A stretch of 64,000 nucleotides of DNA, taken from assembly GCA_902461815.1 (NCBI GenBank), contig CABPZE010000001.1, forward strand, positions 129,374-193,373, in the 5' to 3' direction. A model generated the notes under the pieces. That model had not been told where the DNA came from and did not search any database. It saw only the letters and a program-made list of their open reading frames with translations. Made by a program: the position numbers and the translations under genes. Shown here one piece after another: positions 4,647 to 29,291 of the stretch (its first letter is position 1; every line of letters begins with the position of its first letter). This DNA is from an uncultured Anaerotruncus sp. GTDB lineage: Bacteria > Bacillota > Clostridia > Oscillospirales > CAG-272.

Positions 4647-5931
4647 GGAACGCAGGGAAGCTGAACCTGCAGGAAATATGCCGCGCCCGGAAGTTGCGGT
4701 TATCGGGGGCGGAGCCGCCGGTATGATGACCGCCGCCACTGCCGCAAGGCATGGTGCGGCGGTCACTCTTTTTGAGCGCGAGGAAAAACGCGGCAGAAAG
4801 CTCGGAATTACCGGGAAGGGAAGATGCAATCTGACCAACGACTGCACGCGCGACGAGTTCATGGAGAATGTCCCCGGAAACGCGCGGTTTATGTTTGCTT
4901 CATTTTCCGCTTTTGATCCGCGCGCGGTGATGGAATATTTCGAATCTCTCGGAGTTCCGCTGAAGGTTGAACGGGGAAGAAGGGTCTTTCCGGTTTCCGA
5001 CCGCGCCGGAGACGTGGTTTTTGCACTTGCGCGTGAGGTGGATTCATCGGGATGCCGCACTGTTCATGCCCGCGTCGAAGATATAAAGGTCAATGACGTA
5101 GGCGGGTTCACCGTAACGACCGCCGCCGGAAGCCGGAGCTTTGACCGTGTTGTCATTGCAACGGGCGGCATGTCGTACCCGCGTACAGGTTCAACCGGAG
5201 ACGGCTATGCTTTTGCGCGTAGTATGGGACATATGGTGACAGAGCTGCGCCCGTCTCTTGTGCCTATTGAATCCGGGGCGGCCCTTTGCCGTGAGGCGAT
5301 GGGGCTTACGCTGAAAAATGTATCACTGACTGTAAGGGACGCACAGAGTGGTAAAAATGTTTTTTCAGACTTCGGCGAATTGCTGTTTACGCATTTCGGG
5401 CTTTCAGGACCATTGGCGCTTTCCGCTTCGGCGGCGATAAGAAATGTCGGAAATACTGCTTATGAAGCGGTGATAGACCTCAAGCCCGCACTCGACGAAA
5501 AAACACTTGACCGCAGAGTTCTTTCCGACTTTGAAAAATTCCGCAATCGCGATCTCGTTAATTCTTTGGGCGGACTTCTTCCGCAGAAGCTGATTTCCCC
5601 GTTTGTGGAGCTTGTCGGTATTGCACCGGACAAAAAAGTCAACTCAATAACGCGTGCCGAGCGCGCAAGGATAATATCTTGTCTGAAAAACCTTGTTATT
5701 CCGATCTCCGGACTGCGTCCTGTTGAGGAAGCAGTGGTAACGGCGGGAGGAGTATCCGTAAAGGAGATAAACCCGAAGACGATGGAATCCAAGCTGGTTC
5801 CGGGGCTTTATTTTGCGGGCGAGATCATTGATGTGGACGGATACACCGGGGGCTACAATCTTCAGATAGCGTGGTCTACGGGGCATGCGGCGGGAATCGC
5901 AGCGGCTTTTACGGGTAATAATAATCACTGA
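4618..5931 (+). CDS. HI0933/BaiN-like NAD(P)/FAD-dependent oxidoreductase (aminoacetone oxidase family flavoprotein)
   Basis: Dinucleotide-binding VAVIGGGAAGMMTAATAARHG, and a C-terminal GLYFAGEIIDVDGYTGGYNLQIAWSTG typical of the family. The start is uncertain: ATG at 4618, 4627 or 4678. The ORF-track start at 4546 lies inside the upstream gene. Confidence 0.8.
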   Translation: MTYMTKRKAEERREAEPAGNMPRPEVAVIGGGAAGMMTAATAARHGAAVTLFEREEKRGRKLGITGKGRCNLTNDCTRDEFMENVPGNARFMFASFSAFDPRAVMEYFESLGVPLKVERGRRVFPVSDRAGDVVFALAREVDSSGCRTVHARVEDIKVNDVGGFTVTTAAGSRSFDRVVIATGGMSYPRTGSTGDGYAFARSMGHMVTELRPSLVPIESGAALCREAMGLTLKNVSLTVRDAQSGKNVFSDFGELLFTHFGLSGPLALSASAAIRNVGNTAYEAVIDLKPALDEKTLDRRVLSDFEKFRNRDLVNSLGGLLPQKLISPFVELVGIAPDKKVNSITRAERARIISCLKNLVIPISGLRPVEEAVVTAGGVSVKEINPKTMESKLVPGLYFAGEIIDVDGYTGGYNLQIAWSTGHAAGIAAAFTGNNNH

Positions 5932-6106
5932 TATGTCAGCATGAGGTTTGGTGACATAAATACAATTTTGTGGGATATATCAGAATAACAGGATATTGCA
6001 TTAGCGGTTCAAGGTTATTTTGACGCTGTTTGTGAATCCACGGTAAACAAAAAGTAAACAATGCCTCAAGGTTGCAACTTTCGGGGTGAAAAAGGAGTTA
6101 TTAATA

Positions 6107-6838
6107 ATGATACGCATTGCGATTGACGGTCCGAGCGGCGCCGGTAAAAGCTCGCTTGCCAAAGGGCTTGCCGCACGGCTTGGTATCAACTATCTTGACA
6201 CCGGTGCTCTTTACAGGACAGTAGGATACGCTGCGCGTGAAGCCGGTATCTCTCCGGATGACCGCGAAGCAGTAGTTCGCCTGCTTGAGAGTATTTCGGT
6301 CGAAGCGGTATTTGAAAACGGAACGCAGATGATGTATCTTAACGGCAGAGCACTTGGAGACGAGATACGTCAGCATGAGATCTCGTCATATGCCTCGGCG
6401 GTCTCGGCAATTCCCGAAGTGCGTGCCTTTCTGCTTGAAACGCAGCGCGAGGTCGCGCGGCGTGAAAGCGTGGTGATGGACGGGCGGGACATCGGTACGG
6501 TCATAATGCCGGATGCCGACATAAAAATATTCCTTACCGCCTCCGCAGAGGAGCGCGCTGAAAGGCGTCGCCGCGAGTTAGCCGAACGTGGCGTGGTCGC
6601 AGAATATCCGAAGATACTTGCCGATATTAAGGAACGTGACCGCCGTGACAGCGAACGCGATATTGCTCCTCTGCGCGCCGCTCCAGACGCCATATTGCTT
6701 GACAATTCCGGTTTTACGCCCGAAATGAGCACTGAAGCCGCGCTTCGGCTTATATGCGAGCGTTCCGGAGATATCCTGCCGGACGGTGTGTGCGAGGCGT
6801 GCAGAACCGACGGCGGAAAGGCGGACGGCTGCCGATGA
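6107..6838 (+). CDS. cmk: Cytidylate kinase
   Basis: MIRIAIDGPSGAGKSSLAKGLAARLGINYLDTGALYR. AAAGGAG RBS lies 9 nt upstream of ATG 6107. Confidence 0.9.
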   Translation: MIRIAIDGPSGAGKSSLAKGLAARLGINYLDTGALYRTVGYAAREAGISPDDREAVVRLLESISVEAVFENGTQMMYLNGRALGDEIRQHEISSYASAVSAIPEVRAFLLETQREVARRESVVMDGRDIGTVIMPDADIKIFLTASAEERAERRRRELAERGVVAEYPKILADIKERDRRDSERDIAPLRAAPDAILLDNSGFTPEMSTEAALRLICERSGDILPDGVCEACRTDGGKADGCR

Positions 6839-7470
6839 AAAGTAAATTTTATGCGGTTGCACATTTTCTGCTCGCCTGGCTTGTCAAGGTGATCTTTCTT
6901 GTCTTTTCAAAAAACCGAAAAAATGAGCCGCGACTTTCAGAGGGACCGTATATCGTATGTGCGAATCATATATCGGCAATCGATCCCGTGATAATATGCG
7001 CGGCAACGCGGCGACAGCAGCCGAGATATATGTCAAAGGCGGAGCTTTTCAGGATCCCGGTGCTGGCTCAGCTGTTAAGGGCGATCGGAGCCTATCCCGT
7101 GGATCGCTCTGGTGCGGATGCCGGAGCCGTCCTCAAAACCGTGAAGATGCTTAAGAGCGGGTATTCCGTGGGTATGTTTCCCCAGGGGACACGTCGTCCG
7201 GGAGTCAACCCGGAAGATACGTCGGTTCGTTCAGGTGTGGGGTTTATCTGTGCACATTCTCACGCGCAAGTGCTTCCCGTTTATCTCAAGGTGCGCGGAA
7301 ACCGCATGGGCTTTCTTCGCCCGGTCAAGGTGATCTTCGGCAAGCCGATACAGTACGAGGAATATACCGGTGGCGGAGAATATGAAAAAGATGCCGCGTA
7401 CATTTCAAAATACATCTTTGCGCGCATATGCGAGCTTGGGCGCGAGGACGTCGGTGATAAGAAGAAATGA
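6835..7470 (+). CDS. plsC: 1-acyl-sn-glycerol-3-phosphate acyltransferase
   Basis: Acyltransferase motifs NHISAIDP (HX4D) and FPQGTR. The ATG at 6835 overlaps the cmk stop (ATGA). Confidence 0.85.
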   Translation: MKSKFYAVAHFLLAWLVKVIFLVFSKNRKNEPRLSEGPYIVCANHISAIDPVIICAATRRQQPRYMSKAELFRIPVLAQLLRAIGAYPVDRSGADAGAVLKTVKMLKSGYSVGMFPQGTRRPGVNPEDTSVRSGVGFICAHSHAQVLPVYLKVRGNRMGFLRPVKVIFGKPIQYEEYTGGGEYEKDAAYISKYIFARICELGREDVGDKKK

Positions 7471-9563
7471 GCTGGAAGTTTGAAAGGGTATTTCCTGAGG
7501 GTGGATTTGTCCGTGTTGCCGGAAGCGCCGGTTTTTGCTTCGGCGTTCGCAGGGCAACACAGCGGGTCGAGCAGGCGATAAAAGAAAAGAAGCCAGGCGA
7601 CCGCCTTTACACGCTCGGAAAGCTGATACATAATGACAGCTATCTCTCACGTCTTGCCGATGCGGGCGTTGAGGTGATATGTGAGGAGGATATCCCGCGT
7701 ATCTCACGCGAAGCCGTCAATACAGATTCATATGTTTTCATACGCGCTCACGGTATTACCAAAGAGACCGAGGAGTTACTGAAAAGTGCGTCGCGGGAAA
7801 ATCCGCGCTTTCACTGTATTGACTGTACCTGTCCGTATGTCAAGAAGATACACCGCATTGCTGCGGAAAATTCGGGTACTGACGGAAAAGGGGAACGGGA
7901 GTTCATACTTATCGGTTCTGCGGAGCACCCCGAGGTAAGGGGTATCATGAGCTACTTTGAAGGCAGAAAGAATGCATATGCTACTGCCGAGGAACTGCGT
8001 GTTGCGTTAGAACGTGAAAAGATGGATTATAATGTAAATACAGTTCCTGTTGTGGCAGCTCAAACCACTCAAAAAATATCTGAGTGGAAAAAAAGTCAAG
8101 AAATTATCGAAAAGCTATATACAAGAGCGATAATTTTTGATACAATATGTAATGTTACGGAATCCCGTCAGCTCGAGGCGGAACGGCTTGCGGCGATGTG
8201 TGATCTGATGATAGTTATCGGCGGACAGGACAGTTCCAACACATCAAAGCTTTGCGCGGTCTGCCGCTCGGTCTGCAATAATACGATCAGAATTGCAGAC
8301 GCGGGAGAGCTTGGCGGAATCATTCCGAACACTCACCTTAAGGTGGGAATTGTCGCCGGTGCTTCAACGCCGGACGACATAATAGAGGAGGTATTCAAAA
8401 CAATGAGCGAAACTAAACTCGACAAGGTTGAAATTGAAGGTGAAAACTTTGACGAAATGCTCAACTCAGCGTTCAAAACTTTAAATACAGGAGACACCGT
8501 TACCGGTACAGTAATCGTCATAAGCGATCTCGAGATGAAGCTCGACCTCGGCGCTAAAGTAACCGGTATACTGACCGCCGATCAGACTACAGACGATGCT
8601 TCTGTAAAGCTGAGTGAGATGTACAAGGTCGGCGACCGCATAGATGCGTTCGTCATCCGCGTCAGCGACGTGGACGGTTGCGCGATGCTTTCAAAGAAGC
8701 GCGCAGACCTTGACAAGAACTGGCACAAGATTGCCGAAGCCAAGGAGAACAATGAAACGCTCGAGGCTGTTGTCACCGAAGCGGTAAAGGGCGGCGTTGT
8801 GGCTTCCGTTATGGGCGCCCGCGTATTCATTCCCGCATCCCAGACTGCACTTCCCAAGGAAGCTGATCTTACTCAGCTGGTTGGCAAGACGGTTAAGTTC
8901 AAGGTGATCGAGGTCAAGCCCCAGGGCAAGACCGTAATCGGTTCTATCCGCGCTGCGGCAAGAGAAGAGCGCCGTGCGCTGGAGGACAAGTTCTGGTCTG
9001 AGATCGAGGTCGGCAAATACTATCACGGTACCGTGCGCGGCATGACCGATTACGGTGTGTTTGTTGATCTGGGCGGAGTGGACGGAATGCTCCACAAGAA
9101 GGATCTTTCCTGGAGACCGATACATAAGCCCGCAGACATTCTCAAGCTCGGCGATGAGCTTGACGTGTTCGTAAAGTCCTACAACCCCGAAAAGAAGCAG
9201 ATATCCCTGGGCTACAGAACCGAGGAGACTCATCCGTGGCGCGTTTTCAACTCGCTTTACAAGCTGGGCGACGAGCTTGACGTTACGATCTCAAGCATCA
9301 TGTCCTACGGCGCTTTCGCCCGTATTACAGATGATGTGGACGGACTTATCCATGTGTCGCAGATAGCCCTGACCCGCGTTGACAATCCTGCCGATGTGCT
9401 TCAGGTCGGTCAGACTGTCCGTGTCAAGATCATAAAGATCGATGACGAACAGCAGAGAGTAAGCCTTTCCATCCGCGCAATTCTTGAAGAAGCCGAGCAG
9501 GCTGAGGACTCCGCTGACGAGAGTGCAGAGGTGTCCGAGGATGCTGCGGCAGACGCAGAATAA
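7467..9563 (+). CDS. ispH: Bifunctional 4-hydroxy-3-methylbut-2-enyl diphosphate reductase (IspH) / ribosomal protein S1-like fusion
   Basis: The N-terminal ~290 aa is IspH-like (AGSAGFCFGVRRA, IRAHGITKE, IVIGGQDSSNTSKL). The C-terminal ~400 aa carries four S1-type OB repeats (e.g. GDTVTGTVIVISD, YYHGTVRGMTDYGVFVDL, ISSIMSYGAFARI) and an acidic tail. The start overlaps the plsC stop (ATGA). Confidence 0.9.
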   Translation: MSWKFERVFPEGGFVRVAGSAGFCFGVRRATQRVEQAIKEKKPGDRLYTLGKLIHNDSYLSRLADAGVEVICEEDIPRISREAVNTDSYVFIRAHGITKETEELLKSASRENPRFHCIDCTCPYVKKIHRIAAENSGTDGKGEREFILIGSAEHPEVRGIMSYFEGRKNAYATAEELRVALEREKMDYNVNTVPVVAAQTTQKISEWKKSQEIIEKLYTRAIIFDTICNVTESRQLEAERLAAMCDLMIVIGGQDSSNTSKLCAVCRSVCNNTIRIADAGELGGIIPNTHLKVGIVAGASTPDDIIEEVFKTMSETKLDKVEIEGENFDEMLNSAFKTLNTGDTVTGTVIVISDLEMKLDLGAKVTGILTADQTTDDASVKLSEMYKVGDRIDAFVIRVSDVDGCAMLSKKRADLDKNWHKIAEAKENNETLEAVVTEAVKGGVVASVMGARVFIPASQTALPKEADLTQLVGKTVKFKVIEVKPQGKTVIGSIRAAAREERRALEDKFWSEIEVGKYYHGTVRGMTDYGVFVDLGGVDGMLHKKDLSWRPIHKPADILKLGDELDVFVKSYNPEKKQISLGYRTEETHPWRVFNSLYKLGDELDVTISSIMSYGAFARITDDVDGLIHVSQIALTRVDNPADVLQVGQTVRVKIIKIDDEQQRVSLSIRAILEEAEQAEDSADESAEVSEDAAADAE

Positions 9564-18855: not shown

Positions 18856-18884
18856 TTGACAAACACTCAGAGCTCTGCTATAAT
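18856..18884 (+). promoter_or_regulatory. Sigma-A promoter of tRNA-Thr
   Basis: TTGACA (18856-18861), 17 nt, TGcTATAAT (ending 18884), about 17 nt before the tRNA 5' end. Confidence 0.75.
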
Positions 18885-18900
18885 ATTGCACGTTGGGTCT

Positions 18901-18976
18901 GCTGCTATGGCTCAGTCGGTAGAGCACATCCTTGGTAAGGATGAGGTCGTCAGTTCGATTCTGACTAGCAGCTCCA
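18901..18976 (+). tRNA. tRNA-Thr (anticodon GGU), CCA encoded
   Basis: I folded the cloverleaf by hand. Acceptor GCTGCTA/TAGCAGC; D arm GCTC-AGTCGGTA-GAGC; anticodon arm CATCC-TTGGTAA-GGATG; T arm GTCAG-TTCGATT-CTGAC; then T-CCA. Confidence 0.9.
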
Positions 18977-18979
18977 AAA

Positions 18980-19012
18980 CAGCCGGAAGATTCAGTCTTC
19001 CGGCTGTTTTTT
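18980..19012 (+). terminator. Intrinsic terminator after tRNA-Thr
   Basis: CAGCCGGAAGA ttcag TCTTCCGGCTG followed by TTTTTT. Confidence 0.9.
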
Positions 19013-19025
19013 GTGTCTGCGGGAT

Positions 19026-20426
19026 TTATTTTTTTCGTGGTAATGTCAGCATCCGATACTCAATGAGCTGCGGAATACAGCGCAGGCGGCGAGGTTGAGT
19101 CAGGCACCGCCACAGCCACTCAAGGCGCAGTCTGATAAAGAGCTTGGGCGCACGGCGCACCTCACCCGCCCATACGTCCACCGCGCCTCCGAGTGCGGCG
19201 GCAACGCGCACCCCTGCTTCCCGCAGCATCGGAAGATGCTCGTATATCCAGTGCTCCTGACGCGGAGAGCCAAGACATACGATAAGCAGGCGCGGCTTTG
19301 CCATCAGCAGTGCCGAGGTCAGTGCCGCCTCGTCAGCCGCCTCAGCGTAACCGTCGTATGCTCCGAAAACTTCAAGCCCCGGAAGCTCATTTTCAAGCCG
19401 CTTTGCGGCTTTTTTTGCAATTCCGTGCTTTCCGCCGAGCAGAAATACCCCCGCGTGTTTTTCGGCGGCAATTTTCATTATTTCGTAACCGAAGTCTATC
19501 CCTGCTACTCGCTCAGGGAGCGGAGTTCCGAGGCGCTTTGCCGCGTCCACAACACCTCTGCCGTCTGCAAGCGAGAGAGAAGCGGAGTTTATTATACGGC
19601 AAAAATCCGGGTCGCGGCGGCATTGCATTGAGATCAGGGGATTGGGGGTGAAGACCGTCATTACTCTGTCACCGCCGTTTGTCAGTTCGTCTTGCGCCTT
19701 GCTTACGGCATTTTTGAGCGTAATATTATCAAAAATGACACCGAGCACCGTGACGGTATCGCGTACGTTATTATTAGCCGGAATAAAACCGAGCGCCCCT
19801 GCCGCGGGAGAAACCTCGACAGTGCTGTCGAGGTTTCTGCAAAGCGAAATGACACCGACACGGTCTGCTTCCTTTTTCACAAATCGGTCTGTCAATGTTC
19901 CGTCGGGGATTGCACGACAGTCTAAAAGTCTTCCGCCCGCGTATTTTGAAGCCGCCTCGAGCGCCGTCCAGCCGCAAAGAAAGCTTTCGGGTGTGTCTGT
20001 GGTTTCAATTCCGCGCGGTGCAAGCCAACGCGCGGCAAGCCTTTTGCGCTGTTCGGCTTTTTCGCTGCTCTCAGGCAGGGAAAGATATTCAAGATCAATT
20101 CCGACCTCGCCGCCGTCGGACAGCGCGCATACTACTGTACCGTTGCTGTGAGATATCGAAAAACAAATATTCGGCAGAGCAGGGAAATAAGGCTTGCCGT
20201 TTTCGTTCCGGCTTATGAGAGTGTTTTCGCCGTGAGGAATTCCGGCGCTTTCAAGCATCGAAAGCAAGAGCGTTGCCCCCAAAAGTGACATTTCCTGTTC
20301 CGCGTCTGATTTACGCGTAAGGCTTTTGGTATACTCAGCGCCGAAAGCTGATATCAGCTTGTTCTTATCGACACACGGTGCACCGCAATTGCCCGTTTCC
20401 GCACAGTCGAGATAGACGTGTACCAT
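19026..20426 (-). CDS. Fusion protein: N-terminal Sfp-type 4'-phosphopantetheinyl transferase domain plus C-terminal WecB/TagA/CpsF (GT26) glycosyltransferase domain
   Basis: The N-terminal half has the PPTase motifs NENGKPYF, FSISHSNG, VGIDLEYL and WTALEAASKYAGG. The C-terminal half has VLGVIFDNITLKNAV...VFTPNPLISM...LADGRGVV...VFLLGGKHG...LIVCLGSPRQEHW, typical of the TagA/WecG family. It is one uninterrupted 466-codon frame. Confidence 0.75.
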   Translation of the reverse strand: MVHVYLDCAETGNCGAPCVDKNKLISAFGAEYTKSLTRKSDAEQEMSLLGATLLLSMLESAGIPHGENTLISRNENGKPYFPALPNICFSISHSNGTVVCALSDGGEVGIDLEYLSLPESSEKAEQRKRLAARWLAPRGIETTDTPESFLCGWTALEAASKYAGGRLLDCRAIPDGTLTDRFVKKEADRVGVISLCRNLDSTVEVSPAAGALGFIPANNNVRDTVTVLGVIFDNITLKNAVSKAQDELTNGGDRVMTVFTPNPLISMQCRRDPDFCRIINSASLSLADGRGVVDAAKRLGTPLPERVAGIDFGYEIMKIAAEKHAGVFLLGGKHGIAKKAAKRLENELPGLEVFGAYDGYAEAADEAALTSALLMAKPRLLIVCLGSPRQEHWIYEHLPMLREAGVRVAAALGGAVDVWAGEVRRAPKLFIRLRLEWLWRCLTQPRRLRCIPQLIEYRMLTLPRKK

Positions 20427-20428
20427 TT

Positions 20429-21019
20429 TCAGTCCGTGGTTTGACCGAGCAGGCGCAGAAGATATGACTCAAGCGTCTGCCATGACATGGCGCCCACATG
20501 ATTTCCGATTATATTTCCGCTTTTGTCGATGAACAGCGTAAGAGGTATCGAATAAACCGAATAAGTGTTTGCGGCGTCCGATTTTGTGTCGTAATAGACC
20601 GGGAAGGTGTATCCCTCCTGGCTGACAAAGCTCTTGACCCCCTCTATTGTTTCGGATATTCCGTCAGTGAGATTGACCATCAGAAAATTCACGTCGTTGC
20701 CGTATTTAGTGTACATTTCATTGAAGTCCGGAAGTTCGGCACGGCATGGCGGACACCATGTCGCCCAGAAATTTATAACGATAGGCTCACCTGCAAAATC
20801 CGAAAGCCGGACTTCGTTTCCGTCGGAATCAAGCACGGTAAAGTCAGGGGAGTTGAATTCCTTCTGGCTTTCGGCGGTCGATGAGTCGCCGCTGCTGACC
20901 GGGGGAACGGTAAGTTCGGGCTCGTACTTTTCCGAGAGCTGTGTGTAAAGTATGACTGCTACGACAAACAGTAATATAAAGGCAACGGCGGCTATTATCA
21001 GTTTTAAGTTTTTTTTCAT
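20429..21019 (-). CDS. TlpA/ResA-like membrane-anchored thiol:disulfide oxidoreductase (thioredoxin fold)
   Basis: N-terminal TM anchor (MKKNLKLIIAAVAFILLFVVAVILY) and active site WATWCPPC. The stop is 2 nt from the downstream fusion gene's ATG. Confidence 0.85.
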   Translation of the reverse strand: MKKNLKLIIAAVAFILLFVVAVILYTQLSEKYEPELTVPPVSSGDSSTAESQKEFNSPDFTVLDSDGNEVRLSDFAGEPIVINFWATWCPPCRAELPDFNEMYTKYGNDVNFLMVNLTDGISETIEGVKSFVSQEGYTFPVYYDTKSDAANTYSVYSIPLTLFIDKSGNIIGNHVGAMSWQTLESYLLRLLGQTTD

Positions 21020-21041
21020 CTCATTTGATTTCCTTTTTGAT

Positions 21042-21734
21042 TTATTTAAGGAGGGCGAGAAGCCGGTCAAATAGTCCGGCTGCCATGGTTATTCCCACAA
21101 CGATCAGAAATATGCCGCAAACAAGATTGACAGTGCGGTAATGACGCTTGATGAATCCGAACGCGGAAGTAAGACGGTCGATAAGCAGAGCGGAGATGAC
21201 AAAAGGGATACCGAGTCCCAGCGAGTAGCATAACAGGAGCATCGCTCCGGTCAATGCTCCTCCGCCGGATGATGAGGCAAGCATCAGCGCCGAGCCGAGA
21301 AATGCGCCGACGCAGGGCGTGAAGCTGACGGAATAGACCACTCCGAACAGAAACGCCGATAAAACGCTGTTTATCTCGCCCGTGTCCTTCATCATGCCGT
21401 TGAACGGAAGTCTGAAAACGCCGAGATATCCCAGCCCGAATATTATTACTATTAACCCGCACACGATATTGACCGCTGTTTTATAACGTGTCAGGAAACC
21501 GCCCAGCGCTCCGGCAAAAAGTCCGAGAAGCGTGAAAACAAGCGTAAATCCGATAACGAACGCAAGAGAGCGGAAAAGGACATTCCGCTTGCCGTGTGCC
21601 GGATCTGGCGTTTTGCCTTCGGCGTCCGGATGTGCATTACCGGCAAAATACATGACGTACAGCGGAAGCATGGGAAGCATACACGGAGAAATGAAAGATA
21701 TAAAGCCTTCAAGAAAGGTGACAAGATACTGCAT
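21042..21734 (-). CDS. ccdA: CcdA/DsbD-family thiol:disulfide electron-transfer membrane protein
   Basis: Polytopic ORF with the two conserved Cys contexts FISPCMLPMLPLY and SFTPCVGAFLG. Confidence 0.85.
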   Translation of the reverse strand: MQYLVTFLEGFISFISPCMLPMLPLYVMYFAGNAHPDAEGKTPDPAHGKRNVLFRSLAFVIGFTLVFTLLGLFAGALGGFLTRYKTAVNIVCGLIVIIFGLGYLGVFRLPFNGMMKDTGEINSVLSAFLFGVVYSVSFTPCVGAFLGSALMLASSSGGGALTGAMLLLCYSLGLGIPFVISALLIDRLTSAFGFIKRHYRTVNLVCGIFLIVVGITMAAGLFDRLLALLK

Positions 21735-22059
21735 ATTATTTCCTTGTTTTGTTGATTTGTATCACGCATCTGAATGCGAGGCACTGATAAAATTATACAT
21801 TGTAAACCGTCTGGAGTCAATAGATTGAGCTTCAAAAGTCAAAAGAAGTGTCGGATGTGCCGGAAAATCAAAAGGATTATTGTCAAAACTCCAAAAAAAC
21901 CGCGCGATGTGTACGAAATGTTTGGAGGATGTAATAAAAATGATAAATTTTCAACAAACCTCTTGTATATTTGCCCGGAATAAGATAAAATATATAGTGG
22001 CAATAAATGGTCTGCAAAAACAAAAAACAAACCAATTAAAAAACGGAGGATATCCAATT

Positions 22060-23091
22060 ATGTCAGTAAAAGTTGCTATTAACGGTTTTGGCCGTATCGG
22101 CCGTCTCGCTTTCCGTCAGATGTTTGACGCTGAGGGCTATGAAGTAGTCGCTATCAACGACCTTACCAGCCCCAAGATGCTCGCTCATCTGCTTAAGTAT
22201 GATACCGCGCAGGGTTCTTTCCTCGGCCGTATCGGCGAAGGCAAGCACACCGTTGAGGCTACCGAAGATTCTATCATCGTTGACGGCAAGAGCATCAGAA
22301 TTTACGCTGAGAAGGATGCCAACAACTGCCCCTGGAAGGCTCTCGATGTTGATGTTGTTCTCGAGTGCACCGGTTTCTACACCTCCAAAGAGAAGTCCAT
22401 GGCTCACATCAATGCCGGCGCAAAGAAGGTCGTTATTTCCGCTCCCGCGGGCAATGACCTCAAGACCATCGTTTACAGCGTAAACGAAAAGACCCTGACC
22501 CCCGACGATCAGATTATTTCCGCTGCATCCTGCACCACCAACTGCCTTGCTCCTATGGCAAAGGCTCTTAACGATGCATACCCCATCGTTTCCGGTATCA
22601 TGACCACCGTTCACGCCTATACAGGCGACCAGATGATCCTTGACGGTCCTCAGCGCAAGGGTGACCTCAGAAGATCTCGCGCAGGCGCTCAGAACATCGT
22701 TCCTAACTCCACCGGCGCTGCCAAGGCAATCGGTCTTGTTATTCCGGAACTGAACGGCAAGCTCATCGGCTCCGCTCAGCGCGTTCCCACTCCTACCGGC
22801 TCCACCACCATTCTGGTTGCTGTTGTCAACGGTAAGGACGTGACCAAGGAATCCATCAACGCCGCTATGAAGGCTGCTTCCAACGAGTCCTTCGGCTACA
22901 ACACCGACGAGATCGTTTCTTCCGACGTTATCGGTATGCGTTACGGTTCTCTCTTTGATGCCACTCAGACCATGGTTTCTAAGATCGACGACAACACCTA
23001 CCAGGTACAGGTAGTTTCCTGGTACGATAACGAGAACAGCTACACAAGCCAGATGGTTCGCACCATCAAGTACTTTGCCGAACTCAAATAA
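22060..23091 (+). CDS. gap: Type I glyceraldehyde-3-phosphate dehydrogenase
   Basis: [19 protein letters not shown] and the catalytic [18 protein letters not shown] lies upstream of ATG 22060. The ORF-track N-terminal extension is implausible. Confidence 0.95.
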
Positions 23092-23232: not shown

Positions 23233-23901
23233 ATGCCGAGAATATTACTTGTTGAGGATGACGCGGGAATAGTATCGGGGCTTACGGATTTTCTGCGTTC
23301 AGAGGGCTTTGAGGTTGAAAATGCCCCGGGGCAGTGCGAGGCGCTCAGTCTTGTTGAGGCAAACCGGTTTGACCTTTTGCTGCTTGACGTCTCACTGAGA
23401 GACGGAAACGGCTTTGCCGTATGCTCTGCCGTCAAGGGCAAATATGATATTCCCGTGATATTCCTTACCGCATCTGGAGATGAGGGAAGCGTAGTTGCCG
23501 GACTGGATATCGGAGCAGATGATTACATATCCAAGCCCTTCCGCCCGCGGGAGCTTGCCTCGCGCATACGAAGCGTACTCCGCCGCAGCGGAGGTGCGAG
23601 AAATATCATTCAGCTTGACGATCTGACGGTTGACACCGATAAGGGTACGCTGACAAAGAACGGAGAGGATATTGCGCTTTCTGCGCTCGAATACCGTATT
23701 CTTCTGGTCTTCATCAGCAATCGCGGCAGGCTTTTGTCACGCACGCGACTTTTGGAGGAGATATGGGATGTCGGCGGCGATTTTGTAAACGACAACACTC
23801 TGACAGTTTATATAAAGCGCCTGCGTGAAAAAATTGAGGATGACCCACAAGATCCTAAAATCATCAAAACCGTACGCGGGCTGGGATACAGGCTTGACTG
23901 A
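23233..23901 (+). CDS. OmpR-family response regulator
   Basis: MPRILLVEDDAGI receiver domain, phospho-acceptor context LLLLDVSL, and a C-terminal winged helix (LSALEYRILLVF...IKTVRGLGYRL). AAAGGAGG lies upstream of ATG 23233. Confidence 0.9.
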   Translation: MPRILLVEDDAGIVSGLTDFLRSEGFEVENAPGQCEALSLVEANRFDLLLLDVSLRDGNGFAVCSAVKGKYDIPVIFLTASGDEGSVVAGLDIGADDYISKPFRPRELASRIRSVLRRSGGARNIIQLDDLTVDTDKGTLTKNGEDIALSALEYRILLVFISNRGRLLSRTRLLEEIWDVGGDFVNDNTLTVYIKRLREKIEDDPQDPKIIKTVRGLGYRLD

Positions 23902-23902
23902 C

Positions 23903-24907
23903 ATGAATATTTGGAAAAACCCTGAGCTTCGGCTGGAAATTATACTTCATATAGTGTTGACGGCAGTGCTCGCCGCCGTGGGCTTTTGCTTTGGCGCGGT
24001 AAGCGGTATTATGCTACTGGTGTCAGGCATACTTTTTACGGTTTTTTATCTTGCCTCGGTATACATGCGTTATCGGAGCATTGTGCGCCTGAGTCAGAAT
24101 ATTGACCGGATACTGCACGGTCAGGACAGCATTTTGTTTTCCGAGAGCCGAGAAGGAGAGCTTGCGATACTTGGCAGTGTGATCCAGAAGATGACGGTTC
24201 GCCTGCGCGATCAGGCGGATATACTGGTGAGCGATAAACAAAGACTCAACGACGCAATCGCAGATATTTCGCATCAGCTTCGCACGCCGCTCACTTCAAT
24301 GACACTTACAATATCTCTGCTTTCCGAAGAAAATCTTACGGATGCGCGCCGCGCAGAGCTGATGCACGAGCTTAAAAAATCGCTCCGGCGCATCGACTGG
24401 CTTATTGAAGCGCTGCTTAAGATATCAAAAATTGACGCGGGAACGGCGGAATTCAAATCCGAGCCGGTATCTGTCCGTGGGATGGCGGAACGAGCCGCCG
24501 CACCTCTTCTTATCCCCATGGAACTTCGCTCACAAAGACTTTTGCTTAATATTGGGGAGGAGAGCTATATAGGGGATATGTCATGGAGCGTCGAGGCGGT
24601 GGGAAATATTCTCAAAAACTGCGTCGAGCATACGCCCGAGGGAGGAACCGTTGAGATCGCGGCGACGGAAACGGCGCTTTATACAGAAATAAATATCCGC
24701 GACAGCGGCTGTGGCTTTGATCCGGAGGACATACCGCATCTTTTTGAACGCTTCTGGCGCGGCAAAAACGCGAAGGACGATAGCGTCGGCATCGGACTTG
24801 CGCTCGCCAGGACGGTCATATGTGAGCAGAACGGGACGGTTTCGGCGTCAAACGGCAAGGACGGCGGCGCGTGCTTCAATATACGTTTTTATAAAAGAGT
24901 AATATAG
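23903..24907 (+). CDS. Sensor histidine kinase, intramembrane-sensing type (two adjacent TM helices, almost no extracytoplasmic loop)
   Basis: The two TM helices lie within aa ~10-60. H-box ISHQLRTPLTSM, N-box LKNCVEHT, G-boxes IRDSGCGF and GIGLALAR. The start is 1 nt after the response regulator stop. Confidence 0.85.
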   Translation: MNIWKNPELRLEIILHIVLTAVLAAVGFCFGAVSGIMLLVSGILFTVFYLASVYMRYRSIVRLSQNIDRILHGQDSILFSESREGELAILGSVIQKMTVRLRDQADILVSDKQRLNDAIADISHQLRTPLTSMTLTISLLSEENLTDARRAELMHELKKSLRRIDWLIEALLKISKIDAGTAEFKSEPVSVRGMAERAAAPLLIPMELRSQRLLLNIGEESYIGDMSWSVEAVGNILKNCVEHTPEGGTVEIAATETALYTEINIRDSGCGFDPEDIPHLFERFWRGKNAKDDSVGIGLALARTVICEQNGTVSASNGKDGGACFNIRFYKRVI

Positions 24908-25126: not shown

Positions 25127-26107
25127 TTACTTAAGCCATACGGCGACAGTGGCGAAATCGGTAAAGGTATCGGGCAGGGTAAATCCGTCCGCTCTCGTCA
25201 ACGGGTTAGGATCGTGCAGCTTTACTTTATAGTAGTAGATAATAACGGGTGTTCCGTCATCGTCCAATGTCAGTTGACGCTTGGAAAGCTCGCGGCTGAC
25301 GTATTCAAGCTCCGCATCCTCTTTGCAGTACATGGCGGTTATCTGTTCCTCCGCCATCGCATCGCACGCCGCCGCGTCAAGTCGGCTTGAAACCTTGTTG
25401 GCGATTCCTGTTGTCGGGGGCGTCTTTACATACCGCACTCTGCCGTTTGCGTATATCCAAACATTTGCGAAGTCGGCAGCGCGTATGCCGGATACCGTGG
25501 CATAAAATGTTACTTCATACCATCCGTAGCTCATCAGATCGGGATCGTATCTGTAATTAATGCTATAATCGTTATAGTATTTTTCGTCAGTATACTTCGC
25601 TATCTCTTTTTTTGCCAATCCAACGAGTTCTTCTTCAGATAATTGATTCGCTAAAAGTTCGGAATTGCTATATCCATCGTAATGGCCAAACATATATCCG
25701 ATAACTTTAGATGTGTTTCCGGTAGGGAAGTAAACGCTAACGGATTGCCCATTTTCGTCTTTACATCCGTAAACATCATATGTATCCGGCATACAGTACC
25801 CTGCTAAGTTGGTGGTTCTGTATACTACCGAATAAGTATTTTCATCAATTACGACATCAACCTTCTTGCCTTTTTCCGAATCCAATTCACGCATCTGGTT
25901 GTAATTCAGGATCGTTCTCAAAGCGTTTATGTCGCTTTCGTTTCCCGACTGCACTATATATCCGAGAGAAACGAGTGTATCGGAATTGCCACCAATTGTC
26001 GCGGTATATGTTGGCTCAGACGCTTTGCTTACCTGCGAACACCCACAGAAAAGCATTACAATGATAATCGCAAGGCATATCGAAAAATATTTTCTGATTT
26101 CACGCAT
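25127..26107 (-). CDS. Hypothetical lipoprotein, no family recognised
   Basis: Signal peptide and lipobox MREIRKYFSICLAIIIVMLFCGCSQ. Tyr/Asp/Asn-rich 326-aa ORF in AT-richer DNA. Confidence 0.6.
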   Translation of the reverse strand: MREIRKYFSICLAIIIVMLFCGCSQVSKASEPTYTATIGGNSDTLVSLGYIVQSGNESDINALRTILNYNQMRELDSEKGKKVDVVIDENTYSVVYRTTNLAGYCMPDTYDVYGCKDENGQSVSVYFPTGNTSKVIGYMFGHYDGYSNSELLANQLSEEELVGLAKKEIAKYTDEKYYNDYSINYRYDPDLMSYGWYEVTFYATVSGIRAADFANVWIYANGRVRYVKTPPTTGIANKVSSRLDAAACDAMAEEQITAMYCKEDAELEYVSRELSKRQLTLDDDGTPVIIYYYKVKLHDPNPLTRADGFTLPDTFTDFATVAVWLK

Positions 26108-26121
26108 AACTATGTTCCTCC

Positions 26122-26688
26122 TTAACCTGTATAATTATCATTTACGATGTAAATGACATTGGTGTTTGAAAAATCATACTCTGTATAGCTAATATTGCCT
26201 AAGGCGTTAAGAATGTTTTGCGCTGTAATCTCACCCGATGATTCAGCCTCGATATTTAAGTAATACATGAATTGGGCAATCCATCCATTGGCGTTGTCGC
26301 AGTCAATTTCAACATTAAACCCAATCGTATTTTCCGCACCATTCAAATATGTCGCTCTGACAAGGTTGTCGGCATTCTTCCCGCCCGCTCCGGTCAGACA
26401 GCACATATAAAGTATGAGTTCGGATTTTGAAAACTCTGGCGACGTACCCGATTTTACTTTGGATGAAAATAAAACCGGAGAATACAAATTGCTGTCTCCA
26501 AACCATATTGAATTTTGCATGCCATGACCGCGGAAGATAAATACTTTTGAGCTTATCATATCAGCAAATGCAACATCTTCATTGCTTATTGACTGCTTTT
26601 GCGTTATTGATGCCGAAGTGCCGTAAATATTGCGCAGATAAGCGGCTGTGGTCGTAAGGTATGACGAATGATCATGGTTACCGCCCAA
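26122..26688 (-). CDS. Hypothetical small protein with a caspase-like (clan CD-like) His...Cys arrangement; the 5' end is problematic
   Basis: 188-aa ORF from TTG. It contains VFIFRGHG and, about 41 residues later, LILYMCCLTGAGG. The frame stays open upstream to 26771, where a GGAGGG-preceded ATG (26772-26770) sits one nucleotide out of frame. Confidence 0.5.
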   Translation of the reverse strand: MGGNHDHSSYLTTTAAYLRNIYGTSASITQKQSISNEDVAFADMISSKVFIFRGHGMQNSIWFGDSNLYSPVLFSSKVKSGTSPEFSKSELILYMCCLTGAGGKNADNLVRATYLNGAENTIGFNVEIDCDNANGWIAQFMYYLNIEAESSGEITAQNILNALGNISYTEYDFSNTNVIYIVNDNYTG

Positions 26689-27276
26689 TGCTGACGGAAT
26701 ACCGATAAGTGTCGCCGTATTTCTTCCGCCGCTCGTTACGGCAATATGGGCGTTTCCGGTTCATTGTTCCCTCCATTTTTGTTATTCACGTTGCTTCTAA
26801 GGTTTTGTACATACGGTTTAATTGACCACAGAAAGTTGATTCCATGAAACACATTACTTACTATTTCAATTATCCTTTCACGACACACCTCCATTCAATA
26901 TAAAAGTTATACGATATAGGTCATCTCACTTTTACATAACATCCCCCCTATAATTATAACATGAATTTTCACAAGTTCCTGCAAGTCAATTCACCGTGCA
27001 GATATTGGTATCAATTCCTTCATTGATACCATCTGCCATCATTATATCGTGATATTTCTCAATTGTCAACATGTTTCGCTCGTTTTTTTGTGCAATTTTG
27101 AAAATTATGCCGGTATACAGACGCAGTGCGGGCGCTACCGCTTCCCGACCTTGCGGATTGCGGCTTTGATCGTGACCGATAAAGCTTTTGTGACCTTTCA
27201 GTTATCATAAAGTCACCGGGGTGTCACTTTGTTCCTATATTCTTATGACATCAAATTCAAAAGAGAGGTGTATACT

Positions 27277-27770
27277 TTGGAAATTCTTAAGGTTGAGGAT
27301 CTTACAAAGTTATACGGCAATGGAGAAAACAAGGTCAGGGCTGTGGACAACGTTTCCTTTTCGGTGGAAAAGGGAGAGTTCCTTGCAATAATAGGTCCGT
27401 AAGTCTCGCAAGTCAACGCTTTTTCACATTTTTGGTGGGGTTGACCGTCCAACCTCAGGAAAGGTATATATGAACGGGCAGGACATTTACGCGCAGAATG
27501 AGGATCACTTGCAATCTTCGCCGCCGTCATGTGGGACTTATTTACCAGTTTTACAATCTGATCCCGGTGCTTGACGTGGTCGAAAACATAACGCTTCCGT
27601 TGCTTATGGATGGCAGTAAGGTCGATGAGGAAAGACTTGACGAGCTGCTGAGGACATTGGGACTCAGCAACCGACGCAAAAATCTGCCAAATCAGCTTTC
27701 TGGCGGGCAGGATCATTACTATTGAAGACAGACGCACTGTGAAAGACGAAAAACTCAGGTGTGCAAAGCC
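27277..27770 (+). pseudogene. ABC transporter ATP-binding protein remnant (MacB/FtsE-like): frameshift in Walker A plus an internal deletion after the signature motif
   Basis: Frame 1 reads LEILKVEDLTKLYGNGENKVRAVDNVSFSVEKGEFLAIIGP, then a stop. The next frame reads FGGVDRPTSGKVYMNGQDIY...VGLIYQFYNLIPVLDVVENITLPL...NQLSGGQ. The sequence then jumps straight to the C-terminal IITIEDRRTVKDEKL. The Walker B, D-loop and H-loop region is absent. Confidence 0.85.
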
Positions 27771-28182
27771 ATGAATGTCTTTCAAAAATTCACGAGGATA
27801 TCTTTGCGCCGCAACCGTTCCAGCAAACTGGTTACCATAATCGGAATCATGCTGTCTATGGCTATGTTCACAGCGGTCGTTGAGGCGGTTTACAGCGGAA
27901 TGCAGTACCTTGTACGCGCCGAAACGGTGCGTGTGGGAGCATTTCATGGGTATTATTACGATATGAGCGCCGATGATGTGGAAAAGTTCAGAGAAGCGGA
28001 CGATGTCAGCGATGTTACGGTATGGCAACAGGTCGGTTGGGCTGAAATTGAAGGCAAAAATGAATACAAGCCCTATCTCCTTAGGCAGTATATTTGCTGT
28101 TGTTTTTGCGACAATGATATATTCTACGCGAAAGCTCAAAAAGGACAACCCGATCGATTCGCTTAAAAACGAAGATCTGTAA
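27771..28182 (+). pseudogene. FtsX/MacB-type ABC permease remnant (N-terminal ~105 aa joined out of frame to the last ~30 aa)
   Basis: MNVFQKFTRISLRRNRSSKLVTIIGIMLSMAMFTAVVEAVYSG... (TM1 plus the start of the extracytoplasmic domain) ends near 28085. A different frame then gives LGSIFAVVFATMIYSTRKLKKDNPIDSLKNEDL and a stop, the typical FtsX C-terminus. Intact proteins of this type are several hundred aa longer. Confidence 0.8.
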
Positions 28183-28224
28183 TTATCCGATGTGTTATTT
28201 TGCGAATACTGCCGCCGTCCGGGG

Positions 28225-28253
28225 TTGACAGCGGCGCGCGGGAATGGTATAAT
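28225..28253 (+). promoter_or_regulatory. Sigma-A promoter of asnA
   Basis: TTGACA (28225-28230), 17 nt, TGgTATAAT (ending 28253). Confidence 0.7.
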
Positions 28254-28286
28254 AAGCGCATAGTTTTTATGACAGGAGTTATTGTT

Positions 28287-29291
28287 ATGCCGCTTATCAT
28301 TCCCAAGGGTTATCGCTCCGATCTCACCGCGCGTCAGACGCAGATCGCCATTAAAAAAGTCAAGGACTTTTTCCAGACTGACCTTGCCAACCAGCTCAAC
28401 CTCCGCCGTGTGTCGGCTCCGGTATTTGTTGACTCGGCAACGGGCCTTAACGATAATCTGAACGGTGTTGAGCGTCCGGTGTCTTTTGATATAAAAAATT
28501 GTTCCGGCAGCTTCGAGGTGGTTCATTCCCTTGCAAAATGGAAGCGTTATGCGCTGAAGAAGTACGGCTTTGCGCCCGGCGAGGGACTTTATACCGATAT
28601 GAACGCCATACGGCGCGATGAGGACACAGACAACATCCATTCCGTATTTGTCGATCAGTGGGACTGGGAAAAGGTTATCCTGAAGTCCGAGCGAACCCGC
28701 AGCACGCTTCATGCCACCGTCCGGTATATATATGACGCTCTGCGTCAGACCGAAAATTATATTGCAGACGATTACAATTTTATAGGTCATCTTCTGCCTC
28801 CTGAAATTACATTTGTAACCGCGCGGGAGCTTGAGGCAAAATATCCGTCTCTGACGCCTAAGGAGCGCGAATACCGCGCGGCAAAGGAGTACGGCGCGAT
28901 ATTCCTTGAAGGCATCGGTGGCGCGCTGTCGGATGGCAAGCCGCACGACGGTCGCGCGCCTGACTATGACGATTGGGAGCTGAACGGAGATATCATTGTA
29001 TATTATCCGGTGCTTGACATAGCGCTTGAGCTTTCAAGCATGGGTATTCGGGTTGATGAGGATGCCATGCGACATCAGCTTGAAATTGCCGGCTGTCCCG
29101 AACGTGCAAAGCTACCCTTCCACCGCGCGCTGCTTGCCGGAGAACTGCCGTATTCAATAGGCGGCGGAATCGGCCAGTCAAGAATATGTATGTTCTTCCT
29201 GCGCAAGGCTCATATCGGCGAGGTTCAGGCGTCCTGCTGGCCGGAGGATGAGGTCAGTGCCTGCACTGCGGGAGGAATATTCCTGCTGTGA
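28287..29291 (+). CDS. asnA: Aspartate--ammonia ligase (asparagine synthetase A)
   Basis: FEVVHSLAKWKRYAL and GGGIGQSRICMFFL are AsnA hallmarks. Start is at MPLIIPKGY (ATG 28287) after AGGAG. Confidence 0.9.
   Translation: MPLIIPKGYRSDLTARQTQIAIKKVKDFFQTDLANQLNLRRVSAPVFVDSATGLNDNLNGVERPVSFDIKNCSGSFEVVHSLAKWKRYALKKYGFAPGEGLYTDMNAIRRDEDTDNIHSVFVDQWDWEKVILKSERTRSTLHATVRYIYDALRQTENYIADDYNFIGHLLPPEITFVTARELEAKYPSLTPKEREYRAAKEYGAIFLEGIGGALSDGKPHDGRAPDYDDWELNGDIIVYYPVLDIALELSSMGIRVDEDAMRHQLEIAGCPERAKLPFHRALLAGELPYSIGGGIGQSRICMFFLRKAHIGEVQASCWPEDEVSACTAGGIFLL

Follow-up and report, generated by a model that had tools for sequence, protein, structure and literature searches.

A predicted Sfp-type phosphopantetheinyl transferase domain fused to a TagA-like glycosyltransferase domain in uncultured gut bacteria

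Introduction

What is the purpose, if any, of joining an enzyme that activates carrier proteins to one that initiates a wall glycopolymer? The question is raised by a 64,000-nucleotide (nt) stretch of contig CABPZE010000001.1 from an uncultured Anaerotruncus sp., hereafter called the window, in which one open reading frame (ORF) of 466 amino acids (aa) carries a predicted 4′-phosphopantetheinyl transferase (PPTase) domain followed by a predicted GT26 (WecB/TagA/CpsF) glycosyltransferase domain. Normally a PPTase is either free-standing or part of a synthase, in which case it activates the carrier domains of that synthase. Tethering one permanently to the enzyme that commits the cell to wall-glycopolymer synthesis would be an undescribed arrangement.

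A first-pass annotation of this DNA held that the fusion looks genuine, that no described physical coupling of these two chemistries was known to it, and that the pairing hints at a carrier-protein-dependent modification of a wall glycopolymer. On the second point, the literature that we searched indeed contains no account of such a coupling: we found no paper describing a PPTase-TagA fusion and none combining PF03808 with PF01648, and no name for the fused protein family is recorded in the source records. The architecture is new and is built from two well-known families, with the mechanism of each half predicted by homology. Below we examine whether the fusion is real, what each half is likely to be, where the architecture came from, and which of several explanations best accounts for it.

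Results

The two domains are joined in one conserved polypeptide

The exact 466-aa protein is encoded by 23 contigs that we read, and 20 variants at 95-99% identity, drawn from separate assemblies, are every one 466 aa long with an uninterrupted frame. The frame is also unbroken in 11 diverged homologues, and the same architecture is retained in homologues at 45-89% identity. The fusion is thus intact in more than 20 independent assemblies, and it is from these assemblies that the junction was assessed. Within residues 196-261, a listing of the codons gives only two that are start-like, a GTG at V227 and an ATG at M256. The junction sequence has no Shine-Dalgarno-like sequence upstream of the GTG, and the ATG falls within the GT26 core. 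Given the identical protein on 23 contigs, the 20 variants and the homologues with the same architecture, we conclude that the PPTase and GT26 domains are joined in a genuine, conserved single polypeptide, as had been proposed from the lack of a stop codon, an internal ATG and a ribosome-binding site at the junction. The GC content of the gene (0.53-0.56) is like that of its surroundings, and the comparison of base composition between the two gives no signal of horizontal transfer.

The ratio of nonsynonymous to synonymous substitution rates (dN/dS) was calculated between the window gene and its 89%-identical counterpart in L088. The values are 0.21 for the PPTase domain, 0.16 for the GT26 domain and 0.84 for the linker between them. 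Both domains are therefore under purifying selection, whereas the 24-residue linker is nearly neutral. Among diverged homologues, sequence identity ranges from 6 to 42% in the linker, from 41 to 65% in the PPTase domain and from 51 to 67% in the GT26 domain. The linker also has the lowest predicted local distance difference test score (pLDDT) of the structural model, with values below 50 at residues 219-221, and the predicted template-modeling score (pTM) of the whole protein is only 0.55 although both domains have high pLDDT. Together, the alignments and the model portray two constrained enzymes on an unconstrained and probably flexible tether.

The C-terminal half is a TagA-like GT26 glycosyltransferase

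The C-terminal half scores 173.5 bits against PF03808 (cut-off 27.4; E 4.3e-51) and 137.5 against TIGR00696 (cut-off 69), placing it in the GT26 family. An alignment of residues 225-466 with Thermoanaerobacter italicus TagA (7MPK) runs the full length of both, at about 34% identity (E 3.5e-38). Likewise, when the AlphaFold model is compared by Foldseek with the TagA/TarA crystal structures 7N41, 7MPK and 5WB4, it matches with E 1e-17, a target template-modeling score (TMt) of 0.94-0.95 and a root-mean-square deviation (rmsd) of 1.3-1.6 Å, such that the predicted structure has the GT-E type fold of the TagA core. The motifs first noticed in this half are all present, namely L228-GVIFDNITLKNA, F259-TPNP263, L286-ADGRGV, L330-GG and L385-GSPRQEHW. 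That it forms a full TagA-like domain is thus borne out by both family profiles and, as far as the model can be trusted, by its fold.

The active site of TagA comprises Thr37, Asn39, Asp65 (the proposed catalytic base), Arg83 and Gln167 in T. italicus numbering (PMC6493773, PMC8784642). Their counterparts in the fusion protein are T260, N262, D288, R306 and Q390, all invariant in 12 fused homologues, and these include the counterparts of the TagA specificity residues N39 and Q167. The C-terminal tail of TagA, with residues E210, W211, R214, R221 and R224, is required both for membrane binding and for completion of the active site (PMC6493773, PMC8784642). In the same 12 homologues, the equivalents of the first three (E436, W437 and R440) are invariant and that of R221 (R447) is nearly so. 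The residue that aligns to R224 is C450, which is flanked by basic residues R446 and R449.

None of the more narrowly defined profiles is reached. The NCBIfam equivalog for TarA, the UDP-N-acetylmannosamine (UDP-ManNAc) transferase of wall teichoic acid (NF041710), gives 162.9 bits against a cut-off of 350, and those for WecG (103 against 323) and EpsA (100 against 500) are missed as well. Because these three cut-offs are not reached, we describe the C-terminal half by its sequence as a TagA-like member of GT26 and not as a proven TarA.

The N-terminal half is a divergent Sfp-type PPTase domain

Standard annotation of the N-terminal half is far less straightforward. PF01648 (ACPS) yields 18.3 bits where the gathering threshold is 25, and 19.8 bits for the homologue P0026. 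The NCBIfam profiles AcpT, HetI and AusB remain far under their cut-offs, and the best of them, AcpT, spans just 46 residues. In precomputed annotation, the fused family is assigned PF03808 only, except for a single member (P0025) that also has PF01648. As a consequence, the PPTase half is invisible to standard pipelines, since public records give just PF03808 for nearly all members.

More sensitive comparisons point consistently to Sfp. In the Protein Data Bank (PDB), Sfp is the sole sequence match other than TagA, whether a single sequence (E 1.2e-4) or the family profile (1qr0; E 4.7e-5) is used as the query. Alignment of the family profile with Sfp by hhalign gives a probability of 96.5% and E 9.5e-10 over residues 44-167, and pairs the GKP, ISHS, G-x-D-x-E and W-x-x-x-E-x-x-x-K segments with those of Sfp. 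An AlphaFold model of this domain alone reaches a pLDDT of 92.7 and a pTM of 0.88. Its top 33 Foldseek matches in the PDB are all group II PPTases (Sfp, AASDHPPT, PptAb, PptT and PcpS) with query template-modeling scores (TMq) of 0.46-0.65; for Sfp the values are E 3e-10 and TMq 0.61-0.65. Matches to AcpS-type enzymes appear only at E of at least 0.017 and cover half of the domain. Specifically, the predicted structure is a pseudo-dimer of two alpha/beta subdomains (approximately residues 1-103 and 109-200), which is the two-subdomain fold of some 200-230 residues and not the 120-aa trimeric AcpS type.

The four motifs named for this half in the first-pass annotation are all at their expected places (Table 1). 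G77, P79, H93, D111, W153, E157 and K161 are invariant in the 12 fused homologues, whereas K78 is replaced by Arg in one homologue and E113 by Gln in one of the 12 sequences (P0029). The first and third positions of the PPTase Mg2+ triad are essential, and Asp-Gln-Glu is a known prokaryotic variant (PMC4103896). The Mg2+ triad, the catalytic-site Lys and the coenzyme A (CoA)-binding His of a group II PPTase are thus all in place. A further feature sets the clade apart: an invariant R133-W-L-x-P-x-G139 motif replaces the 'RFFSKTE' segment of Sfp.

We searched 1.84 billion representative proteins exhaustively by HMMER with a profile of the N-terminal domain and obtained 16,470 matches at E of 1e-3 or better. 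The best non-fused matches are 190-230 aa long, and the top 150, barring three fused proteins, are 165-272 aa. PF01648 is passed by six of the eight best stand-alone matches. The closest of these relatives is nevertheless distant, with E 2e-26 compared to 1e-77 or better for fused homologues. In the region 164-2695 of L085, a 5.5-kb contig, the gene for this protein (P0123, 208 aa) has as neighbors, some 300 bp away, a 91-aa ORF and a gene resembling that for a terminase large subunit. Such proximity suggests that prophages may carry some of these small PPTases. Two other stand-alone relatives, P0124 and P0127, are on contigs of only about 1.1 kb.

The proposal that this half is an Sfp-type PPTase therefore holds. 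The Sfp profile match, hhalign, the fold and the motifs all favor it, but the curated Pfam and NCBIfam thresholds fail, an outcome that had been named beforehand as grounds for rejection. On balance, we consider that the sensitive profile and fold evidence overrides the missed cut-offs, and that the N-terminal half is best described, from sequence and model, as a divergent Sfp-type PPTase domain.

The architecture is rare and probably arose once

Scores better than 1e-30 with the N-terminal domain profile are confined to three clusters (at 50% identity) among the 1.84 billion representatives, and all three are fused. The architecture occurs in six of 185,579 species-representative genomes (L005-L010), which are metagenome-assembled genomes (MAGs) labeled as uncultured Anaerotruncus, Ruminococcus or Eubacteriales, and the closest match among them is 57% identical. 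The architecture is accordingly rare and is limited to one small clade of Oscillospirales-like gut bacteria. The species from which the window comes is itself frequent in metagenomes of the human gut. Scanning metagenomes with the N-terminal domain profile gave eight matches, comprising seven fused genes and one remote stand-alone, and none of the eight is an intermediate between separate and fused genes.

When 81 GT26 domains are placed in a neighbor-joining tree, those of the seven fused proteins group together to the exclusion of every non-fused one, which argues for one fusion event. More than 40 non-fused relatives have a separate tagA gene (encoding approximately 240-270 aa) directly upstream of gap and co-oriented with it. 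This pairing is stable across Eubacteriales/Oscillospiraceae MAG loci (L011-L084; for example, L011 9992-11921 and L033 10022-11947), and a gene resembling a class II aminoacyl-tRNA synthetase often lies upstream of the pair on the opposite strand. Fused species have kept gap next to the fusion gene, but there the two genes are divergent, with gap on the side of the PPTase end. The retained adjacency and the changed orientation indicate that the GT26 half is the orthologue of the lineage's housekeeping tagA, and that a local rearrangement accompanied the fusion.

The PPTase half has no comparable history at this locus. A hidden Markov model (HMM) of the clade-specific N-terminal domain finds no PPTase-like ORF in up to 10 kb of flanking sequence at 74 non-fused tagA loci. 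From this we judge that the PPTase originated at another place in the genome, and that no operon-level association lies behind the fusion.

Locus context and search for a partner

The features of the locus are collected in Table 1. The gap gene is the only neighbor that is conserved across the fused clade and its non-fused relatives; genes downstream of the fusion differ between species. Since the product called in other assemblies has 343 aa, the true start of gap probably lies within the annotated ORF. GAPDH shares 95-96% aa identity between species (L005, L006, L008 and L009) whose fusion proteins share 46-57% and whose two-component genes are 61-73% identical. Either this clade conserves GAPDH to an unusual degree, or the gene has possibly passed between species.

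Table 1. Coordinates of the fusion gene, its predicted domains and motifs, and adjacent features (window numbering)
Feature	Position	Strand	Basis or remark
Sigma-70-like promoter of tRNA-Thr	18856-18884	plus	12/12 match
tRNA-Thr(GGT)	18901-18976	plus	convergent with fusion gene
Palindromic hairpin, 16 bp, flanked by A4 and T4	18976-19010	.	16 nt past fusion-gene stop
PPTase-GT26 fusion gene	19026-20426	minus	one 466-aa ORF, ATG to TAA; TAA at 19026-19028
TagA-type C-terminal tail, residues 421-466	19029-19166	minus	alignment to full-length TagA 7mpk
GT26 (WecB/TagA/CpsF) core, residues 225-420	19167-19754	minus	PF03808, 7mpk alignment, Foldseek
Inter-domain linker, residues 201-224	19755-19826	minus	stop codon absent, no usable internal start
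Predicted Sfp-type (group II) PPTase domain, residues 1-200	19827-20426	minus	profile, hhalign, Foldseek
W153-TALEAASK161; E157 = Sfp Glu151 (third Mg2+ ligand), K161 = Sfp Lys155	19944-19970	minus	
G109-IDLE113; D111 = Sfp Asp107, E113 = Sfp Glu109 (Mg2+ triad members 1 and 2)	20088-20102	minus	
F89-SISHS94; H93 = Sfp His90, invariant	20145-20162	minus	homologue and Sfp alignments
G77-K78-P79, counterpart of Sfp GKP segment ('EYGKP')	20190-20198	minus	homologue alignment
Thioredoxin-like gene	20429-21070	minus	Pfam annotation and sequence
ccdA/DsbD_TM gene	21042-21734	minus	Pfam
Promoter-like site upstream of ccdA	21792-21820	minus	11/12 consensus matches, consensus scan only
gap (GAPDH)	21880-23091	plus	sole neighbor conserved across fused clade and non-fused relatives

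Between gap and the fusion gene, the window species and its 89%-identical sister carry a ccdA-thioredoxin pair that the other fused species are without, and which looks like a recent insertion. The fusion-gene start comes almost directly after the stop of the thioredoxin-like gene (TGAAAATG), and the promoter-like site upstream of ccdA is probably the start of a ccdA-trx-fusion transcript in the window species. At the other end of the gene, the hairpin probably serves as a two-way terminator for the fusion gene and the convergent tRNA-Thr. An 80-aa ORF (18856-19098) that overlaps this tRNA is probably spurious.

Pfam annotation of the window lists tRNA synthetases, an oligopeptide ABC transporter, isoprenoid genes, tsaBDE, dnaB/dnaI-like genes and others, and includes no gene for a PP-binding protein, AcpS, dlt proteins, nonribosomal peptide synthetase (NRPS) or polyketide synthase (PKS), tagO, mnaA or LCP proteins anywhere in the 64 kb. 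Within 10 kb of the fusion gene in seven other fused loci, there are no carrier protein, dlt or wall-polymer genes. We also used phmmer with the sequences of AcpP, AcpA, two DltC and two AcpS proteins to search every ORF of at least 45 aa, both in the window and at all of the loci. This acyl carrier protein (ACP), DltC and AcpS search matched only the stand-alone PPTase in L091 and, weakly, an ORF in the non-fused L019. Both approaches thus uphold the earlier remark that the window shows no gene for a carrier protein.

Several other genes of the window deserve mention. Beside a response regulator gene, the window and L004 each carry an intact histidine kinase gene (23825-24907 in the window), whereas three other assemblies of the same species, L001-L003, have it broken into two or three ORFs (L001-L004, approximately 5520-6587); this could reflect pseudogenization or variation, or an assembly error. 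Three consecutive minus-strand ORFs of 326, 188 and 567 aa (25127-28946) have no Pfam match, and two of them have homologues upstream of tagA in the non-fused L033 (7402-9878). Finally, a second multi-domain fusion in the window, a 698-aa protein uniting IspH (LytB) with an S1 RNA-binding domain (7467-9563), is encoded downstream of cmk and a PlsC-like acyltransferase gene.

Discussion

The reading that we favor, with a probability of about one half, is that the fusion protein is bifunctional and consists of two independently folding, catalytically competent modules on a flexible linker of approximately 24 residues. By homology to TagA, the GT26 module (residues 225-466) would act at the cytoplasmic face of the membrane, where it would move a sugar, either ManNAc or a similar 2-acetamido sugar, from its UDP-linked form to the 4-OH of N-acetylglucosamine (GlcNAc)-PP-undecaprenyl. 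This transfer would start the linkage unit of a wall-attached glycopolymer. By homology to Sfp, the PPTase module (residues 1-200) would use CoA and Mg2+ to attach 4′-phosphopantetheine to a serine in at least one apo-carrier protein whose gene lies in another part of the genome. We infer both activities and the identity of the donor sugar from these relationships, and presume that the two reactions are not directly coupled in a chemical sense. Fusion would nonetheless yield the two activities at a 1:1 ratio, and the amphipathic C-terminal tail of the TagA portion may bring the PPTase to the membrane. The arrangement would have originated once, when the tagA-gap locus was rearranged locally in an ancestor of a small gut Oscillospirales-like clade, and would have been kept since.

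Several observations weigh against this proposal. The N-terminal domain is widely separated from stand-alone PPTases and fails the Pfam and NCBIfam cut-offs. With the RWLxPxG motif standing where Sfp has RFFSKTE, the substrate or the role of the domain could have shifted. In the other half, the non-basic C450 occupies the position of TagA R224, and the shortfall against the TarA equivalog leaves the exact sugar specificity unsettled. Furthermore, maintenance of the fusion by selection over such divergence suggests a functional benefit, which simple co-expression of two modules leaves vague.

One alternative is that the PPTase activates a dedicated DltC-like or acyl-carrier-like protein, which in turn decorates the same glycopolymer that the GT26 domain initiates, by D-alanylation or acylation. 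The fusion would then co-localize polymer initiation and carrier activation at the membrane. Teichoic-acid D-alanylation requires phosphopantetheinylated DltC, both active sites are conserved, and the fusion is under purifying selection across species whose proteins are 45-57% identical. Moreover, the TagA tail is a membrane-targeting element (PMC6493773, PMC8784642). We nevertheless regard this Rosetta-stone coupling as unlikely, although none of the other alternatives fares better. The gene is surrounded by housekeeping genes, and carrier, dlt and wall-polymer genes are absent from the window and from the seven other loci over the distances given above. In addition, no PPTase accompanies tagA within 10 kb at the 74 non-fused orthologue loci. 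The carrier-protein-dependent modification of a wall glycopolymer suggested by the first-pass annotation is therefore unsupported, though not refuted; only gap is conserved nearby.

The consequences of the two readings differ considerably. If the link between the domains is functional, then it points to a carrier-protein-dependent envelope step such as D-alanylation or acylation in poorly studied but abundant human-gut Clostridia, and the fusion would be a natural starting point from which to look for the carrier protein. Should these genomes contain no other PPTase, then one polypeptide would hold two functions that are essential or nearly so in model Gram-positive bacteria. If the fusion merely provides co-expression, then it represents a clean, datable and stable fusion at a conserved housekeeping locus, and serves as a caution against over-reading Rosetta-stone fusions.

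A different possibility is that the N-terminal domain is no longer a transferase, and instead serves as a CoA- or nucleotide-binding regulatory module, or an oligomerization module, that tunes TagA. Such a module might tie polymer initiation to the CoA or acetyl-CoA state of the cell, or might control a switch between inactive TagA oligomers and active monomers. TagA is known to be regulated through its oligomeric state (PMC6493773, PMC8784642), and a STAS domain, which is of a regulatory type, is N-terminal in other GT26 proteins (P0078, P0084 and P0094). The failure of the domain to reach any curated PPTase threshold, its strong divergence from stand-alone enzymes and the clade-specific motif in place of RFFSKTE fit this idea as well. 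However, a domain retained purely for binding should have lost at least its catalytic Glu or Lys in one lineage or another, whereas here the residues of PPTase chemistry (the Asp/Glu Mg2+ ligands, Lys, His and GKP) are all kept, and the sole deviation, Glu to Gln, is known in active enzymes (PMC4103896). We consequently judge loss of transferase function to be improbable.

It is far less plausible that the PPTase-fold domain acts on a non-protein acceptor, placing 4′-phosphopantetheine or another phospho-group from a nucleotide donor on the lipid-linked disaccharide made by the GT26 domain or on the nascent glycopolymer. Its tethering to an enzyme that makes a lipid-linked sugar, its intact catalytic residues, the unusual motif on the substrate side and the lack of a carrier protein encoded nearby are all compatible with such a reaction, which would represent a new cell-wall polymer modification and the first acceptor of this kind for the PPTase superfamily. 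To our knowledge, however, no member of the PPTase family acts on a non-protein acceptor, and the unconstrained linker and low inter-domain confidence speak against a shared active site. Finally, a sequencing or assembly frameshift that merged two adjacent genes is effectively refuted, as contigs, allelic variants and homologues as distant as 45% identity share the identical frame although different samples and assemblers gave rise to them, and no fused species has a stand-alone gene of either half at this locus.

The bifunctional protein that we favor can be placed beside several known systems. TagA/TarA of B. subtilis, S. aureus and T. italicus (5WB4, 5WFG, 7MPK and 7N41) is a UDP-ManNAc:GlcNAc-PP-undecaprenol beta-1,4-ManNAc transferase. 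The GT26 half resembles it in predicted fold (template-modeling score 0.95, rmsd 1.5 Å), in its core residues and in the conserved counterparts of E210, W211, R214 and R221. Unlike the characterized enzymes, the fusion protein has a 224-residue N-terminal addition and does not conserve the R224 equivalent, and its gene is outside any teichoic-acid cluster.

The N-terminal half shares with Sfp and other group II PPTases (AcpT, PcpS, Sppt, PptT and AASDHPPT) the pseudo-dimer fold of approximately 200 aa, the aligned motifs and the Asp-Glu-Glu triad. It differs from Sfp in being only about 20% identical, in carrying RWLxPxG for RFFSKTE, and in having Leu, Phe or Tyr in the fused family at the position of K150, the Lys before the catalytic Glu. 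It differs from the group as a whole in being joined to a glycosyltransferase without associated NRPS, PKS or fatty acid synthase (FAS) genes.

PPTases do occur as one domain of larger polypeptides. The fungal FAS alpha-subunit and the enediyne PKS (PKSE) each have a C-terminal PPTase domain, and in this regard they resemble the fusion protein. Those polypeptides include the ACP substrate of their own PPTase, whereas the fusion protein is without a carrier domain, given that PF03808 is the only Pfam match beyond the PPTase and that the ACP search was negative.

The closest parallels on the glycosyltransferase side are other GT26 proteins with N-terminal extensions (P0078, P0084, P0094, P0096 and P0099), in which the GT26 domain is C-terminal as it is in the fusion protein. 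Their N-terminal modules, none of which is a PPTase, are either regulatory (STAS; PF01740/PF13466, in proteins of 472-503 aa) or belong to the same polysaccharide pathway (Bac_transf, PF02397, and GT2). These proteins demonstrate that the N-terminus of GT26 tolerates fusions, and the STAS-GT26 combination suggests that some TagA-like enzymes may be regulated through an N-terminal domain.

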